DNA of 64,000 nucleotides from an uncultured beta proteobacterium (GTDB lineage Bacteria > Pseudomonadota > Gammaproteobacteria > Burkholderiales > SG8-41): contig CAVZWF010000007.1 in NCBI GenBank assembly GCA_963778865.1, positions 70,086-134,085 on the forward strand, read 5' to 3'. A program made the position numbers and the translations under genes. Below the pieces are notes generated by a model. It saw only the letters and a list, made by a program, of their open reading frames with translations. It ran no database searches and was not told where the DNA came from. Numbering within the stretch: position 1 is the first letter of the stretch; every line of letters begins with the position of its first letter. Positions 5,748 through 35,918 of the stretch are shown in pieces.

Positions 5748-5807
5748 CGCGGCCTTTCTATGCGGTTGAAGCAGCAAGAGGCCGGCGGGAAGCTCCCTTT
5801 CCCTGAG

Positions 5808-5853
5808 CCCATAACATAATGAAACGCGCACACGTGTTTCATTATGTTATGGG
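5808..5853. repeat. Perfect 18-bp inverted repeat with 10-bp spacer, AT-rich, about 60 bp upstream of the lexA ATG
   Basis: CCCATAACATAATGAAAC (5808-5825), gcgcacacgt, GTTTCATTATGTTATGGG (5836-5853). The arms are exact reverse complements. No T-run follows on either strand. Confidence 0.9.
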
Positions 5854-5880
5854 CTCTTGCCGGCCTCCCGTTTCGCCCAC

Positions 5881-6368: not shown

Positions 6369-6569
6369 ACGTGCAATAACGCGCCCACTGCAAGAGAGGT
6401 TTACAGACGATGAGCGGGCGGGTTTCGCCGGCGGCCGGACTGCTTCTACAATCGCCGGTGGTTGCGCGGCCGCCGTACTACCACCGCTGGTGGAATCGGA
6501 CTCGCCGGCGGCGGCCGGCGGGGTGTAATGGCATAATCGGCACCCTATACGGGAGGCCATCTCAAAAAT

Positions 6570-6612
6570 CCCTTCACCCCAGCCCTCCCCACTAGCGCGG
6601 GGCGAGGGAGTA
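6570..6612 (+). repeat. REP-like palindromic element, family A (CCCTC(TC)CCC..GGGG(A/C)GAGGG hairpin)
   Basis: CCCTTCACCCCAGCCCTCCCCACTAGCGCGGGGCGAGGGAGTAT is near-identical to 34541-34590. It is related to 24241-24283, 34457-34500 and the two copies inside prmC. Confidence 0.8.
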
Positions 6613-6634: not shown

Positions 6635-7648
6635 ATGAGCATTCGCAGCCGTTTAGCCGCAGCAGTCGCGACGATCTTGTTTGCCGCCGCAACCGCCGGC
6701 GTGCGCGCCGAGGTCAGCGAAGTCAGCGTCGCGCAACAATATGGCGTGAGCTTTCTGCCGCTGATGTGGATGGAGCACAACAAGCTGATCGAAAAGCACG
6801 CCAAGGCGCAGGGGCTCGGCGAACTCAAGGTCAACTGGGCCAAGCTCGCGGGTCCCGCTGCGATGAACGACGCGCTGCTGTCGGGGTCGCTGCATTTCAG
6901 CTCGGTCGGCGCGCCGTCGCTGATCACGCTGTGGGGCAAGACCAAGGGCAACATCGGCGTCATGGGCGTGTCGGCGCTGACCACGTATCCGCTGTATCTC
7001 AACGTGCGCAATCCCAATGTGAAATCGATCAGGGATTTCACCGACAAGGACAAGATCGCGGTGCCCGCGGTCAAGGTGTCGACGCAGGCGATCATGCTGC
7101 AGATGGCGGCCGAGAAAGCGTTCGGCGAAGGCAATCAGTTCAAGCTCGATCCGTTCACCGTCACGCTGTCGCATCCCGACGGCATGGCGGCGCTGATGTC
7201 GAACACCGGCGGCGTCGACGCGCACTTCACGACTTCGCCGTTCCACGAGCAGGAGATGAAAATTCCGGGCGTGCGCACGCTGACGACGTCGTACGAAATC
7301 CTCGGCGGGCGCGCGACCGCGCTGGTGGTCGTCACGACGACGAAGTTCCGCGAGGCGAATCCGAAAACCTACAACGCATTTTTCGCCGCGTTGAAGGAAG
7401 CGATCGACGCGATCAACCGCGACAAGAAAGTCGCCGCGCAGCGCTATCTCGAATGGGCGAACGACAAAAAGTCGACGCTCGACGAAGTCTATGCGGCGAT
7501 CTCGAACCCCGATTACGCGTTCACGCTGATGCCGGAAAAAGTGTTCAAGACCGCCGAGTTCATGGCCAAGATCGGCTCGGTCAAGGACAAGCCGGGTTCG
7601 TGGAAGGACATGTTCTTCCCCGAAATTCACAACCTGCCGGGCAATTAA
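6635..7648 (+). CDS. NMT1/THI5-like (NitT/TauT-family) periplasmic substrate-binding protein, no cognate permease or ATPase adjacent
   Basis: Intact 337-aa ORF with signal peptide MSIRSRLAAAVATILFAAATAGVRA. The SBP-like body reads ..VAQQYGVSFLPLMWMEHNKLIEKHAK..IRDFTDKDKIAVPAVKVSTQAIMLQMAA... Confidence 0.7.
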   Translation: MSIRSRLAAAVATILFAAATAGVRAEVSEVSVAQQYGVSFLPLMWMEHNKLIEKHAKAQGLGELKVNWAKLAGPAAMNDALLSGSLHFSSVGAPSLITLWGKTKGNIGVMGVSALTTYPLYLNVRNPNVKSIRDFTDKDKIAVPAVKVSTQAIMLQMAAEKAFGEGNQFKLDPFTVTLSHPDGMAALMSNTGGVDAHFTTSPFHEQEMKIPGVRTLTTSYEILGGRATALVVVTTTKFREANPKTYNAFFAALKEAIDAINRDKKVAAQRYLEWANDKKSTLDEVYAAISNPDYAFTLMPEKVFKTAEFMAKIGSVKDKPGSWKDMFFPEIHNLPGN

Positions 7649-24240: not shown

Positions 24241-24283
24241 CGCCCCTCACCCCGCCCTCTCCCCGCAAGCGGGGAGAGGGTAA
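24241..24283 (+). repeat. REP-like palindromic element, family A
   Basis: GCCCCTCACCCCGCCCTCTCCCCGCAAGCGGGGAGAGGGTAAT, with the perfect hairpin CCCTCTCCCC/GGGGAGAGGG. It lies between the CitE-like and RidA genes. Confidence 0.85.
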
Positions 24284-32066: not shown

Positions 32067-33321
32067 ATGCAGCTATTCGCTTTCGGCATCAACCACCAGA
32101 CCGCGCCGCTTGCGCTGCGCGAGCAGGTGGTTTTTCACGCCGAAAATCTGGTGCAGGCGCTGCGCGACCTCGTCGACCGCAATCCGGTCAAGGAGGCTGC
32201 GATCATCTCGACGTGCAATCGCACTGAAGTCTATTGCGACACGACCGAGCCGCGCCAGGCTTTGCATTGGCTCGCCGAGTATCACCAGCTGAAAGACGCA
32301 GCACCTCGAGCCGTACGTCTATCAATTGCCGCGCGAACGCGCGGTCAAGCACGCGTTTCGCGTCGCCAGCGGGCTTGATTCGATGGTGCTGGGCGAACCG
32401 CAGATTCTCGGCCAGTTCAAGGATGCGGTGCGCACGGCCGAAGAGGCGGGCACGCTGGGACTGCTGCTGAACAAACTTTTTCAGCGCACGTTTTCGGTGG
32501 CGAAAGCCGTGCGCTCGGAAACCGACATCGGTGCCAGCACGGTGTCGATGGCGTCAGCGGCGGTGCGCTTCGCCGAGCGTATCTACCCGAGCATCGCGGA
32601 ACAAAGCGCGCTTTTCATCGGCGCGGGCGAAATGATCGAACTGACCGCCACGCATTTCGGCGCGCGCCACCCGCGCCACATGACCTTCGCCAACCGTACC
32701 GTGGAGCGCGCTCAGCATCTCGCCGAGCGTTTTCGCGGCCGCGCCATCAGCCTGAACGATCTGCCGTCGCAGCTGGCGGTACACGACATCATCATTTCTT
32801 GCACGGCGAGCATGCTGCCCATCATCGGCAAGGGGCTCGTCGAAAGCGCGCTGCGCGCGCGCAAACACCGGCCATTGCTCATCATCGATCTGGCGGTGCC
32901 GCGCGACGTGGAAACCGAAGTCGGCGCGCTCGACGATGTGTTTTTGTGCACGGTGGATGACTTGGGCAGAATCGCGCGCGAGGGCTTGGGCGTGCGCGAG
33001 TCGGCGGTGGCGCAGGCCGAGGCCATCATCGAAACCCAGGTCGGCGATTTCATGCAGTGGCTCGACAACCGAGAACTGGTGCCGACCATACGCGCGCTGC
33101 GCGACGACGCGGAACGCGCGCGCCGCCACGAAGTCGAGCGCGCGGTGCGGAGCCTGGCGCGCGGCGACAACGCCCAGCAGGTGCTTGAAGCGCTTAGCCA
33201 TTCGCTCACCAACAAATTCCTGCACGCACCCACGCACGCGCTCAACCACGCCAACGACGGCGATCGCGAGCAACTTGTAACCATGTTAAGGCGGCTCTAC
33301 CAGCTGAAGCAGTCCGAATGA
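32067..33321 (+). pseudogene. hemA: Glutamyl-tRNA reductase; one frame change near 32295
   Basis: [61 protein letters not shown] lies inside ORF 32058-32378. It then shifts to ..[43 protein letters not shown].. (ORF 32326-33321). Confidence 0.9.
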
Positions 33322-34409
33322 AAGAGAGCATCGCCGCCAAGCTCGCGCAGCTCGCGCTGCGGCTGGAAGAATTGAACGGGCTCCTGAGTTCGGAACAGGC
33401 CACCGACAGCATGGACAACTACCGCAAGCTCACGCGCGAGCACGCGGAAATCACGCCGGTGGTGGAACTCTACAAACGGTACCGTCAAAGCGAAGGCGAT
33501 TTGCAGGCCGCGGAAAGCATGGCTGCCGACCCGGCGATGCGAGAGTTCGCCGAAGCGGAAATGCGCGACGCGCGCGCGCGGCTTGTGCAGCTTGCGGACG
33601 AACTGCAGACGCAATTGCTGCCCAAGGACCCCAACGACGAGCGCAATATTTTTCTCGAAATTCGCGCGGGTACCGGCGGCGACGAATCGGCGTTATTCGC
33701 GGCGGAGCTTTTTCGCATGTACACGCGCTACGCCGAACGCAAGAAATGGCAGGTCGAGGTCGTGTCGCACAGCCAGAGCGAACTCGGCGGCTACAAGGAG
33801 GTGATCGCGCGGATTGCCGGCCAGGGCGCCTATTCCAAGCTCAAGTTCGAGTCGGGCGGCCATCGCGTGCAGCGCGTGCCCACGACCGAGACGCAGGGGC
33901 GCATACACACTTCGGCCTGCACCGTCGCCGTGCTGCCTGAAGTCGATGCGGTCGCCGATGTCGTCCTCAATCCCGCCGAAATGCGCATTGACACGTTTCG
34001 CTCGTCGGGCGCGGGCGGCCAGCATATCAACAAGACCGATTCCGCGATTCGCATCACGCACCTGCCGACCGGCATCGTCGTCGAATGCCAGGACGATCGT
34101 TCGCAACACAAGAACAAGGCGCGCGCGCTCGCCGTGCTCGCCGCCCGCATCAAGGACAAGCAGGTGAGCGAACAGCAGCAGAAAACCGCCGCGAAGCGCA
34201 AATCGCTGATCGGCAGCGGCGACCGCTCGGAACGCATACGCACCTACAATTTTCCGCAGGGCCGCGTGACCGATCATCGCATCAATCTCACGCTCTACAA
34301 GATTGCTTCCATCATTGACGGCGATCTGGACGAATTGACCGGCGCTTTGAGCGCCGAGCACCAGGCCGAGCAGCTGGCGGCGCTCGGCGAAGAATCTCAA
34401 GCGGCGTGA
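33318..34409 (+). CDS. prfA: Peptide chain release factor 1
   Basis: Intact 363-aa ORF containing ..[23 protein letters not shown].. and the GGQ motif ([24 protein letters not shown]). Its ATG overlaps the hemA stop. Confidence 0.95.
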
Positions 34410-34456
34410 TGTCACGCGCGGGCCGTACTATTAATTCGGAAGCTATCTCAAGAATT

Positions 34457-34590
34457 CCCTCTCCACCTGTTAAGGGGGAGAGGGCTAGGGTGAGGGGGGC
34501 GGCCGGAAATATTGTTACACTAAACATGATCGCTATCGCTGCCCCTCACCCCAACCCTCTCCCCACTATCGCGGAGCGAGGGAGTATCTT
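34457..34590. repeat. Two family A REP-like elements in inverted orientation separated by a ~40-bp AT-richer spacer (prfA-prmC intergenic)
   Basis: 34457-34500 reads CCCTCTCCACCTGTTAAGGGGGAGAGGGCTAGGGTGAGGGGGGC (reverse orientation). 34541-34590 reads GCCCCTCACCCCAACCCTCTCCCCACTATCGCGGAGCGAGGGAGTATCTTT (forward). Confidence 0.85.
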
Positions 34591-34611: not shown

Positions 34612-35547
34612 ATGCAGCCGACGATAGCGCAAGCGCTTGCGTCAGCGCGTCTCGATACGGTCGACGCGCGCGTGCTCCTGCGTCATGCATGCGGCGTCGA
34701 TGATGCATATCTCATTGCGCATGCAGACGAGACGTTGAGCGCCGCGCACCATGCGGTGTACTCGGCACTCGTCGCGCGCCGCGCCGCCGGCGAACCGGTT
34801 GCGTACATCACCGGCACGCGCGAATTTTTCAGTCTCGAATTCAAAGTGACGCCGGAGGTGTTGATTCCGCGGCCGGAAACCGAATTGCTGGTCGAAATCG
34901 CGCTGGAACGACTGAGTCCGGATCGCGCGTACCGCGTGCTCGATCTGGGAACCGGCAGCGGTTGTATTGCAATTGCGATTGCGAAACACCGTCCACGCGC
35001 GCAGGTTGTAGCGGTTGATTCGAGCGCGGCAGCGCTCGATGTTGCGTGCGCGAATGCAAGGAGGCTATTGCGCGCTTGTTCGATCTCCACCTCCACCCTG
35101 GCCCTCCCCCATCAAGGGGGAGGGGACCCAAATGGTTGCACTGAAACTCCTTCCCCCTTGATGGGGGAAGGTGGGGATGGGGGTGACTTGTCATTACTGC
35201 AAAGCGACTGGTTTGCGGCGCTCGGCGAACAACGCTTCGATCTGATCGTGGCGAATCCGCCATACGTTGCCAAGGACGACCCGCATCTCAACGCAGGCGA
35301 TCTGCGTTTCGAGCCGGCGACTGCGCTGGTCGCGGGTGGCGACGGCCTGTCGCGCATACGCGCCATCGTTGCATCAGCGCCGCTCTACCTGAACCGCGAC
35401 GGCTGGCTCGTATTCGAACATGGCTACGATCAGGCGGCGCGCTGCCGTGAATTGCTCGCAGAAGGAGGATTCAACGAAGTGTTTTCCCGCGCCGATCTTG
35501 CCGGCGTGCAGCGCGTCAGCGGCGGGTGGTGGCGCCCGCTGTCTTGA
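34612..35547 (+). CDS. prmC: Release-factor glutamine N5-methyltransferase PrmC (HemK), carrying an in-frame ~34-aa insertion
   Basis: Continuous 311-aa ORF reading ..GEPVAYITGTREFFSLEFKVTPEVLIPRPETE..VLDLGTGSGCIAIAIA..VVAVDSSAAALDVACANARRL[insert]LLQSDWF..FDLIVANPPYV... It follows the prfA-prmC synteny. Confidence 0.9.
   Translation: MQPTIAQALASARLDTVDARVLLRHACGVDDAYLIAHADETLSAAHHAVYSALVARRAAGEPVAYITGTREFFSLEFKVTPEVLIPRPETELLVEIALERLSPDRAYRVLDLGTGSGCIAIAIAKHRPRAQVVAVDSSAAALDVACANARRLLRACSISTSTLALPHQGGGDPNGCTETPSPLMGEGGDGGDLSLLQSDWFAALGEQRFDLIVANPPYVAKDDPHLNAGDLRFEPATALVAGGDGLSRIRAIVASAPLYLNRDGWLVFEHGYDQAARCRELLAEGGFNEVFSRADLAGVQRVSGGWWRPLS
35085..35187. repeat. Pair of family A REP-like hairpins (inverted) located inside the prmC coding sequence
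   Basis: CTCCACCTCCACCCTGGCCCTCCCCCATCAAGGGGGAGGGGA, then a 20-nt spacer, then CTCCTTCCCCCTTGATGGGGGAAGGTGGGGATGGGGGTGAC. It translates in frame as ..STSTLALPHQGGGDPNGCTETPSPLMGEGGDGGD... Confidence 0.8.
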
Positions 35548-35609: not shown

Positions 35610-35918
35610 ATGAACGTGCAGGAAGTTATTAAAGATCAAGTCACCAAGAACCCGGTGGTGTTGTACATGAAAGGTTCGCCGGATTTTCCGCAATGCGGGT
35701 TTTCCGCCAACGTGGTCGGCATCCTGCGCGCGTGCGGCGTGGAGGATTTTTTCTCGGTCAACGTGCTCGAAAATCCCGACATCCGCCAGGGCATCAAGGA
35801 ATTCGCCAACTGGCCGACCATACCGCAGCTTTACGTGAACGGCGAATTTGTCGGCGGCTCGGATATCCTGCGCGAAATGTACGAAAGCGGGGAACTGAAA
35901 AAAGTGCTGCAGAAATAA
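35610..35918 (+). CDS. grxD: Monothiol glutaredoxin (Grx4 family, CGFS type)
   Basis: Intact 102-aa ORF reading ..VVLYMKGSPDFPQCGFSANVVGIL..WPTIPQLYVNGEFVGGSDI... Confidence 0.9.
   Translation: MNVQEVIKDQVTKNPVVLYMKGSPDFPQCGFSANVVGILRACGVEDFFSVNVLENPDIRQGIKEFANWPTIPQLYVNGEFVGGSDILREMYESGELKKVLQK

Follow-up and report, generated by a model that had tools for sequence, protein, structure and literature searches.

An inverted REP doublet in frame within a loop of prmC in an uncultured betaproteobacterium, and its counterparts among relatives

The prmC locus

A 64,000-nucleotide stretch of DNA from an uncultured betaproteobacterium (GenBank assembly GCA_963778865.1, contig CAVZWF010000007.1, positions 70,086 to 134,085; hereafter the window) was analyzed with a focus on prmC, the gene for the release-factor N5-glutamine methyltransferase, and on a pair of inverted repetitive extragenic palindromic (REP) units that lies inside this gene. 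Coordinates refer to the window unless a locus is named, and loci from relatives and metagenomes are designated by L numbers. The prmC open reading frame (ORF; 34612..35547, + strand) is uninterrupted over 311 codons, and its translation bore out an earlier note, made from the sequence alone, which had described an open frame of 311 aa.

The identity of the gene was established by using TIGR03534, Pfam, an AlphaFold2 (AF2) model, Foldseek, and the ratio of nonsynonymous to synonymous divergence (omega, dN/dS). The whole protein scored 287.1 bits on TIGR03534 (equivalog cutoff 199.1), and Pfam placed in it the PrmC_N helical domain (PF17827) and the MTS class I methyltransferase domain (PF05175). 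Residues G113, G115, and G117 (GTGSG) as well as N215-P216-P217-Y218 (NPPY) are invariant in the PrmC alignment and present in the window protein. Immediately 5' of prmC lies prfA (33318..34409, + strand; TIGR00019 523 bits, cutoff 423), which encodes release factor 1 (RF1), the substrate of PrmC. The conserved 3' neighbor, as synteny in relatives indicates, is a Grx4-type monothiol glutaredoxin gene (35610..35918, + strand; TIGR00365 155 bits), and the gene order hemA-prfA-prmC-grx is retained in relatives. The window prmC thus encodes a true PrmC. The earlier note had called the gene essential-type, a loose label given that prmC mutants of E. coli K-12 are sick and viable.

Size, position, and DNA anatomy of the insert

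A 40-residue segment (codons 153-192; 35068..35187, + strand) stands in place of a 4-residue helix-to-strand loop, as determined from phmmer alignments to 1T43 and 2B3T, from a gap relative to the closest insert-less relative, and from low predicted local distance difference test (pLDDT) values. In the phmmer comparison with the Protein Data Bank, E. coli HemK (1T43, 2B3T) matched through its residues 15-156 and 161-273, to which PrmC residues 9-152 and 193-305 aligned; the window protein thus has 40 residues where E. coli has 4 (157-160) and is longer by a net 36 aa. The TIGR03534 match is likewise broken in two by the insert, into residues 18-159 and a C-terminal part. Relative to L086, the closest insert-less relative at 82.7% nucleotide identity, the window gene has an extra 108 nt (36 codons), a multiple of three that introduces no stop. 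The earlier note had put the extra residues at about 34; the insertion itself stands, its size being slightly larger, while the peptide that it quoted (RACSISTSTLALPHQGGGDPNGCTETPSPLMGEGGDGGD) is correct and its repeat coordinates are accurate within a base.

At the DNA level, the extra residues are, as had been proposed, two inverted hairpins and a spacer. The left REP unit (35086..35124, + strand) consists of a degenerate tail, TCCACCTCCACCCTGG (35086-35101), followed by a hairpin core, CCCTCCCCCATCAAGGGGGAGGG (35102-35124), and encodes STSTLALPHQGGG. It is followed by a 24-nt spacer, GACCCAAATGGTTGCACTGAAACT (35125..35148, + strand), which encodes DPNGCTET and is conserved in L081, L082, L083, and L085. 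The right unit (35149..35186, - strand) is inverted, with the core CCTTCCCCCTTGATGGGGGAAGG (35149-35171) preceding the canonical tail TGGGGATGGGGGTGA (35172-35186), and encodes TPSPLMGEGGDGG. A unit is accordingly built of a 23-nt core (9-bp stem, 5-nt loop) and a 15-nt tail, a short imperfect palindrome able to form a G+C-rich stem-loop as expected of a REP. The repeat search returned inverted arms at 35088-35124 and 35149-35185 (37 nt each, 81% complementary) on either side of the 24-nt spacer. The pair has the geometry of a REP doublet forming a hairpin (REPIN), with two inverted REPs, a short spacer, and a predicted single long hairpin: RNA of positions 35075-35200 folds at -72.3 kcal/mol, with a shuffle mean of -50.4 (z = -5.8). 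The 16-mer of the REP core occurs four times on both strands of the window vs 0.32 expected, and none of 100 shuffled sequences reached four.

Three of the six reading frames of the window doublet are free of stops, and therefore roughly 1 in 6 random insertions into the PrmC loop would leave the gene open. Because the insert is read in a stop-free frame and adds a net 108 nt, prmC stays open.

Fillings of the loop among relatives

Homologues were counted among the best 120 PrmC clusters. In 91 of these the connector is short (proteins of ~275 aa, in which 13 residues separate the positions equivalent to N148 and S198), which together with the 4-residue turn of E. coli HemK agrees with the earlier statement that PrmC proteins are normally short at this point. 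The other 29 clusters carry REP-derived inserts at the identical loop, with 16-86 extra residues, all in frame. Two peptide modules, TPTLALPHQGGGN and TPSPLMGEGWDGG, make up the extra residues; they arise when the two orientations of the REP are translated in stop-free frames. That every array is in frame partly reflects ascertainment, since only intact ORFs enter the protein database.

DNA was inspected for nine insert-bearing relatives, and REP arrays were found at the loop. The window arrangement recurs in L023 and L081, the latter with a 24-nt secondary insertion within the left unit. In L082 the spacer and right unit are tandemly duplicated, and L083, L084, and L085 combine a (CACCCC)n run with a second type of REP, present as one unit or two. 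L003 holds a tails-inward doublet, L209 a tails-inward doublet whose first unit is a nested-hairpin variant also present at intergenic sites, and L087 a single unit. The (CACCCC)n run at the tail of the left unit (L083:3470-3500; L084 ~1000-1040) is translated as TPTPTPTP, and this in-frame microsatellite differs in length between L083 and L084. The residues that flank the inserts (RLL upstream, SFV or LSL downstream) are unlike those of insert-less alleles. Rather than being a recent event confined to this genome, the window insert is thus one allele of a repeat-filled loop that uncultured Betaproteobacteria of one clade have in common.

These independent occurrences bear on the possibility that the repeat pair was wrongly threaded into prmC during assembly. 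REPs are known as assembly break points, and contig L014 ends ~100 nt past its REP array. However, REP arrays occupy the exact codon position, always in frame, in independent projects, namely JGI samples 3300069203, 3300082239, and 3300044821, the ENA records ERZ27314315, ERZ28573512, and ERZ909605, and the NCBI records GCA_038903095.1 and JANNPG01; the exact window protein is moreover recorded in both NCBI and ENA. REP inserts at the same site in independent assemblies make misassembly very unlikely, and we give an artefact almost no weight.

The REP family in the window and in metagenomes

Six REP units were found at four loci of the window, and the three loci other than prmC are intergenic. 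Single intergenic copies lie at 6565..6612 (+ strand), upstream of an ORF starting at 6635, and at 24244..24282 (+ strand; CCCCTCACCCCG followed by CCCTCTCCCCGCAAGCGGGGAGAGGG). A second doublet with degenerate cores and inward-facing tails lies in the prfA-prmC spacer (34456..34583, without strand assignment), its arms spanning 34456-34497 and 34542-34583 (42 nt each, 76% complementary). Common to the units are a tail rich in C and a hairpin of the form CCCTCYCCC...GGGRGAGGG.

The exact 23-nt core of the right unit, CCTTCCCCCTTGATGGGGGAAGG, was present in at least 120 metagenome contigs, where the copies continue into the tail consensus NNGGGATGGGGGTGA, as at 35172-35186. The family consensus derived from these copies is the core plus a GGATGGGGGTGA tail, such that units end in GGATGGGGGTGA on one side and in variable sequence on the other. 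Among the matches listed, nearly all metagenome sites are intergenic once spurious ORF extensions are discounted, and ~2-3% of the sampled sites lie in frame in real genes. Intergenic doublets occur with the tails outward, which is the geometry of the window (L091, L113), and with the tails inward (L092, L095, L132, and others). No GTAG or CGTC tag is found next to the stem-loop in this family, which sets it outside the super-families of Di Nocera et al. (2013). An Rfam scan returned no real family, and its sole matches, to models of miRNA precursors (generic long hairpins), stayed below threshold.

The idea that the insert is an ordinary ancestral PrmC loop, palindromic by chance, would fit its presence in many related lineages and the distinct flanks of the filled alleles. 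It is refuted by the occurrence of the same core and tail between genes of the window and in the unrelated metagenome contigs. The short loop of the 91 clusters and of the E. coli and Thermotoga HemK proteins also speaks against it, as does a ratio of dN to dS within the insert (given below) unlike that of a selected protein-coding loop. We regard an ancestral origin as extremely improbable.

Long ORFs that run over REP cores in the metagenome loci were considered as candidate in-frame inserts and mostly rejected, being stop-free upstream extensions or antisense ORFs of the kind typical of high-GC DNA. Three cases survived Pfam checks. In a TlyA-like FtsJ/S4 methyltransferase (L119:1282-2211, + strand), a REP doublet lies in frame after NARY and before DVSFIS. 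GlyS, the beta subunit of glycyl-tRNA synthetase (L186:3-1472, - strand), carries an in-frame REP and has its Pfam match split in two, and a major facilitator superfamily (MFS) transporter (L192:3456-4832, + strand) carries a single in-frame unit in its central loop. A synthetic 54-aa concatenation of REP-encoded peptides was compared with other proteins and gave one uninformative match of 50 aa.

Two further observations concern the prfA-prmC operon. In the window it is repeat-decorated at two places, the spacer and the prmC loop, and the corresponding spacer of L001 (~2944), whose prmC is without an insert, also holds a related REP. Elsewhere in the window, an AT-rich inverted repeat unrelated to the REP family lies at 5805-5856 (24-nt arms, 96% complementary, 4-nt loop; GAGCCCATAACATAATGAAACGCG and CGTGTTTCATTATGTTATGGGCTC) and may be a terminator or operator.

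Predicted structure of the insert-bearing protein

An AF2 model of PrmC was built on an 81-sequence alignment, with a mean pLDDT of 89.8 and a predicted template modeling score (pTM) of 0.85. Values below 50 were confined to residues 164-171 and 174-188, in the loop between the helix 139-153 and the strand 192-197. A Foldseek comparison with the E. coli PrmC of the RF1 complex (2B3T_A) gave an E value of 6.7e-31 and a target template modeling (TM) score of 0.90. The insert-bearing protein is therefore predicted to keep an intact catalytic fold with a disordered loop, in line with the earlier suggestion of a surface-loop insertion.

The insert follows the helix of motif II and precedes the strand of motif III. 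In class I (Rossmann-type) methyltransferases, helix-to-strand loops are located opposite the face that binds S-adenosylmethionine (SAM) and substrate. A position on the face opposite these pockets would explain why the insert is tolerated.

How the insert evolves

Synonymous and nonsynonymous divergence (dS and dN) were compared among the insert-bearing genes of the window's group, with 38 codons counted as insert. Outside the insert, dS was 0.77-0.96 and omega 0.13-0.23, from which it follows that prmC is functional and under purifying selection. Within the insert codons, dS was 0.07-0.11 and dN approximately equal to dS (omega ~1). The nucleotides of the insert, spacer included, are thus conserved about eight-fold more strongly than the synonymous sites of the host gene. 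Since dN is close to dS and the loop is predicted to be disordered, whatever conserves the insert acts on nucleotides and not on the peptide. On this sequence evidence, the insert is retained as a DNA or RNA element.

Alignment of orthologues, the intergenic copies of the repeat, the structural model, and purifying selection on the remainder of prmC together substantiate the earlier description of a palindromic repeat colonizing a coding region. The suggestion in the same note of a tolerated, possibly selected loop holds for tolerance and fails for selection at the protein level.

A decaying prmC, in which the insert is unpurged damage on the way to a pseudogene, might be suspected from a foreign element in the middle of a catalytic domain. 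The ORF, however, is intact in all 29 insert-bearing clusters, NPPY, GTGSG, and the other invariant residues are kept, the fold is predicted with confidence, and omega among the insert-bearing genes is 0.13-0.23, all of which leaves this explanation with a negligible chance of being correct.

Somewhat less improbable, though still most unlikely, is a peptide loop that is useful to PrmC, for instance as a new interaction surface. The insert persists across lineages whose prmC genes differ at dS ~0.8-0.9, and the modules TPSPLMGEGWDGG and TPTLALPHQGGGN recur. Against this, omega is ~1 in the insert vs 0.13-0.23 elsewhere, pLDDT falls below 50, the number, order, and type of modules vary freely (16-86 extra residues), and close relatives manage without any insert; the recurring peptides are merely what a conserved DNA repeat yields when its stop-free frames are translated.

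A role at the RNA or DNA level in the prfA-prmC operon, in which the 37-bp hairpin might be, for example, a site for RNase III or RNase E, a barrier to decay, or an attenuator of translation by which PrmC is tuned relative to RF1, is a more serious alternative, although we consider it doubtful. It is favored by the very stable hairpin, by conservation at the nucleotide level that extends through the spacer, and by the second REP doublet in the prfA-prmC spacer, and REPs have been reported to affect mRNA stability and translation (PMC3733652). Empty alleles in very close relatives imply that such a role is not required, and the composition of the array is highly variable. REPs are also equally conserved at intergenic sites of unrelated genomes, so a local function need not follow.

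Recombination between filled and empty alleles

The clearest pair is formed by L087 (GCA_038903095.1), in which the loop is filled, and its close relative L088 (GCA_038903135.1), in which it is empty. Across 5.4 kb, 117 positions distinguish the two, and a stretch of 300 bp surrounding the loop holds 38 of these as well as a 72-nt indel; outside this central tract the two prmC genes are 99.6% identical. Compensatory evolution of the flanks in response to the insert was considered and rejected because synonymous sites have diverged as well, with a flank dS of 0.449 vs 0.006 in the remainder of prmC. This synonymous divergence rules out compensatory protein evolution and indicates that the diverged tract was imported.

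The same pattern was observed when flank identity was compared by pair type, using protein pairs at least 90% identical elsewhere in PrmC. Flank identity was 0.77 for filled vs empty pairs, 0.92 for empty vs empty pairs, and 0.90 for filled vs filled pairs. In a neighbor-joining (NJ) tree of PrmC without the loop, insert-bearing proteins are scattered among insert-less ones. Filled and empty alleles are thus swapped between close relatives by homologous recombination, with tracts of ~250-300 bp.

For the window gene itself, the prmC flanks are nearest to those of the insert-bearing L081-L085 (75-85%), and the rest of the gene is nearest to the insert-less L086 (81%). This incongruence is suggestive of a similar exchange, as judged from 126 nt. 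The two groups of flanks and architectures (the window type and the type of L003, L087, and L209) are, in the flanks, no closer to each other than to empty alleles, and with recombination at work the NJ tree cannot decide between one origin of the inserts and several.

Two other differences between L087 and L088 were recorded. A second divergent patch (L087:5651-5850; 19 mismatches per 200 bp vs a background of ~1-2%) lies in a 261-aa gene without a Pfam hit and may reflect a further tract of recombination. Close to the 3' end of prmC, a 4-nt indel (L088:2370-2402 vs L087:3870-3900) alters the C-terminus and stop of the L088 protein, which has 283 aa vs ~275.

DUF559 genes bracketed by the REP pair

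Small DUF559 genes, encoding Vsr-like PD-(D/E)XK nucleases, were found exactly flanked by a tails-inward REP pair in six independent contexts (L096:230-835, L098:435-922, L106:40-453, L200:6560-7023, L210:386-927, and L220:473-964). The layout is a core with a GGATGGGGGTG tail, then the gene, then CACCCCCATCC with a core. Four of these loci (L096, L098, L106, and L200) were found via the REP core only, and L210 and L220 were retrieved independently as DUF559 homologues. In the L210 and L220 groups, whose proteins are 57-68% identical to that of L200, the bracketed gene lies between glyQ and glyS, which suggests that this operon offers a landing site that is conserved or used recurrently. Of the in-frame REPs described above, that of L186 is also in glyS.

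No DUF559 gene was present in 609 kb of loci not selected for REP content. A plasmid BLAST search with the REP-DUF559-REP unit gave no match, and no literature linking DUF559 to REPs was found. By analogy with the REP-associated tyrosine transposase (RAYT) genes, which are flanked by REPs and which the DUF559 genes between REPs resemble, the bracketing hints at a possible mobilizer of the REP family.

A bolder proposal, tentative and in our judgment rather unlikely, is that the REP family is the non-autonomous partner of the REP-bracketed DUF559 gene and that the prmC loop is a long-lived 'nest', in which the REPs would be kept uniform with those of the whole genome by ongoing conversion or re-insertion and selection would police only the frame. 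If this is true, the pairing of REP and DUF559 would parallel that of RAYT and REPIN with a different enzyme class. The DUF559 lead could therefore reveal the mobilizer of a widespread REP family for which no RAYT match was obtained.

Interpretation

The explanation best in accord with these results, to which we assign a probability of roughly 85%, is that a REPIN-like inverted REP doublet from a widespread, normally extragenic family sits in frame in the prmC loop, with the fold intact and the loop disordered. The array would originally have arrived via the transposition or copying process that spreads this REP family. Its persistence would be due to the purging of variants that break the frame and to the position of the loop on a face of the Rossmann fold remote from the pockets for SAM and substrate. 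In addition, prmC expression may be modulated by the 37-bp mRNA hairpin.

Several points weigh against this explanation or parts of it. No target-site duplication was seen at the filled and empty sites inspected (window vs L086, L087 vs L088); as filled and empty flanks have diverged, a clean empty-site junction is not definable. No RAYT match was obtained by tblastn in the window or in ~1.4 Mb of other loci, a weak test made with an E. coli RayT query. The low dS of the insert could have any of three causes, namely constraint on its sequence or structure, gene conversion by REPs located elsewhere, or a recent recombinational spread. Tails point outward in the window group and inward in the group of L003 and L209, and these two architectures would fit one ancient colonization or two. 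Support for the assembly at the repeat is indirect and comes from independent assemblies. Finally, the activity of the insert-bearing protein is something that we infer: methylation of the GGQ glutamine of RF1 and RF2 is suggested by purifying selection (omega 0.13-0.23) and by linkage to prfA.

The REP doublet in prmC illustrates how a selfish or structural DNA repeat can inhabit the gene of a housekeeping enzyme for a long time, with the host policing frame and fold only. The element keeps its own identity at the nucleotide level, and its filled and empty states circulate by recombination. The locus therefore offers a natural experiment on REP turnover vs coding-frame constraint and on the relevance of a 37-bp mRNA hairpin.

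Comparison with known systems

The closest precedent is the survey of intragenic REPs of the GTAG and CGTC super-families, which are mostly intergenic and occasionally lie in known genes (Di Nocera, De Gregorio, and Rocco 2013, BMC Genomics 14:522, PMC3733652). More than half of those intragenic REPs come as dimers or groups that code for 20-30 aa, clusters coding for 43-82 aa are present in the betaproteobacterium Thauera and in R. conorii, and the inserts were argued to occupy flexible loops (PMC3733652). The family in prmC differs in that it is without a GTAG or CGTC tag and has instead a hairpin core and a GGATGGGGGTGA tail. Neither prmC nor hemK appears in that catalogue of intragenic REPs (PMC3733652). 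The catalogue does hold R. conorii RC1314, a 524-aa 'tRNA-G-N7-methyltransferase' with a REP at residues 109-117 (supplementary file 4 of PMC3733652). The NCBIfam model NF002421, a bifunctional PrmC/TrmB fusion, also has 524 positions, and RC1314 may likewise be a homologue of PrmC, its REP being located elsewhere in the protein.

Rickettsia palindromic elements (RPE; Ogata et al. 2000, as cited in PMC3733652 and PMC3184786) were the first in-frame palindromic repeats to be described in genes. They resemble the prmC insert in lying in frame in protein genes whose orthologues are without them, at a place compatible with fold and function; the prmC insert, too, is absent from orthologues, keeps the frame, and resides in a gene under selection. 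RPE differ in that their sequence is unrelated, they are longer (~105-146 bp), and their host is an obligate intracellular alphaproteobacterium. In-frame RPE copies are also numerous per genome, vs ~2-3% of sampled sites for the family in prmC. Intragenic repeats have been reviewed more broadly (PMC3184786).

REPIN/RAYT systems (Bertels and Rainey 2011, PMC3116915; PMC3337134) share with the prmC doublet the arrangement of two inverted REPs and a short spacer as a long hairpin, and doublets that are better conserved than the surrounding DNA. REPs of SBW25 are overwhelmingly extragenic, with 14 of 1,067 16-mers overlapping genes (PMC3116915). Unlike the prmC doublet, REPINs have not been described as stable in-frame residents of a housekeeping gene, and the gene bracketed by the present family encodes a DUF559 nuclease and not a Y1 transposase. 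In comparison with a MITE (a miniature transposable element with inverted repeats), the REP pair takes the place of the inverted termini, and a direct repeat flanking the insert was not seen. With E. coli PrmC/HemK (1T43; 2B3T with RF1) the window protein shares the fold (TM 0.90), 36-37% identity, the NPPY motif, the N-terminal helical domain, and the prfA-prmC linkage, and it differs in having 40 residues where E. coli has a 4-residue turn (157-160).

Set beside these systems, the prmC case adds a host gene and an untagged REP family to a known phenomenon, and a single insertion of this kind will not surprise specialists. Di Nocera et al. (2013) give no report of variable arrays at one site across lineages, of a dS contrast, or of recombinational allele swapping. 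As far as the literature found extends, what is new are the variable arrays at one loop, the DNA-like evolution of the insert, and the swapping of filled and empty alleles by recombination.

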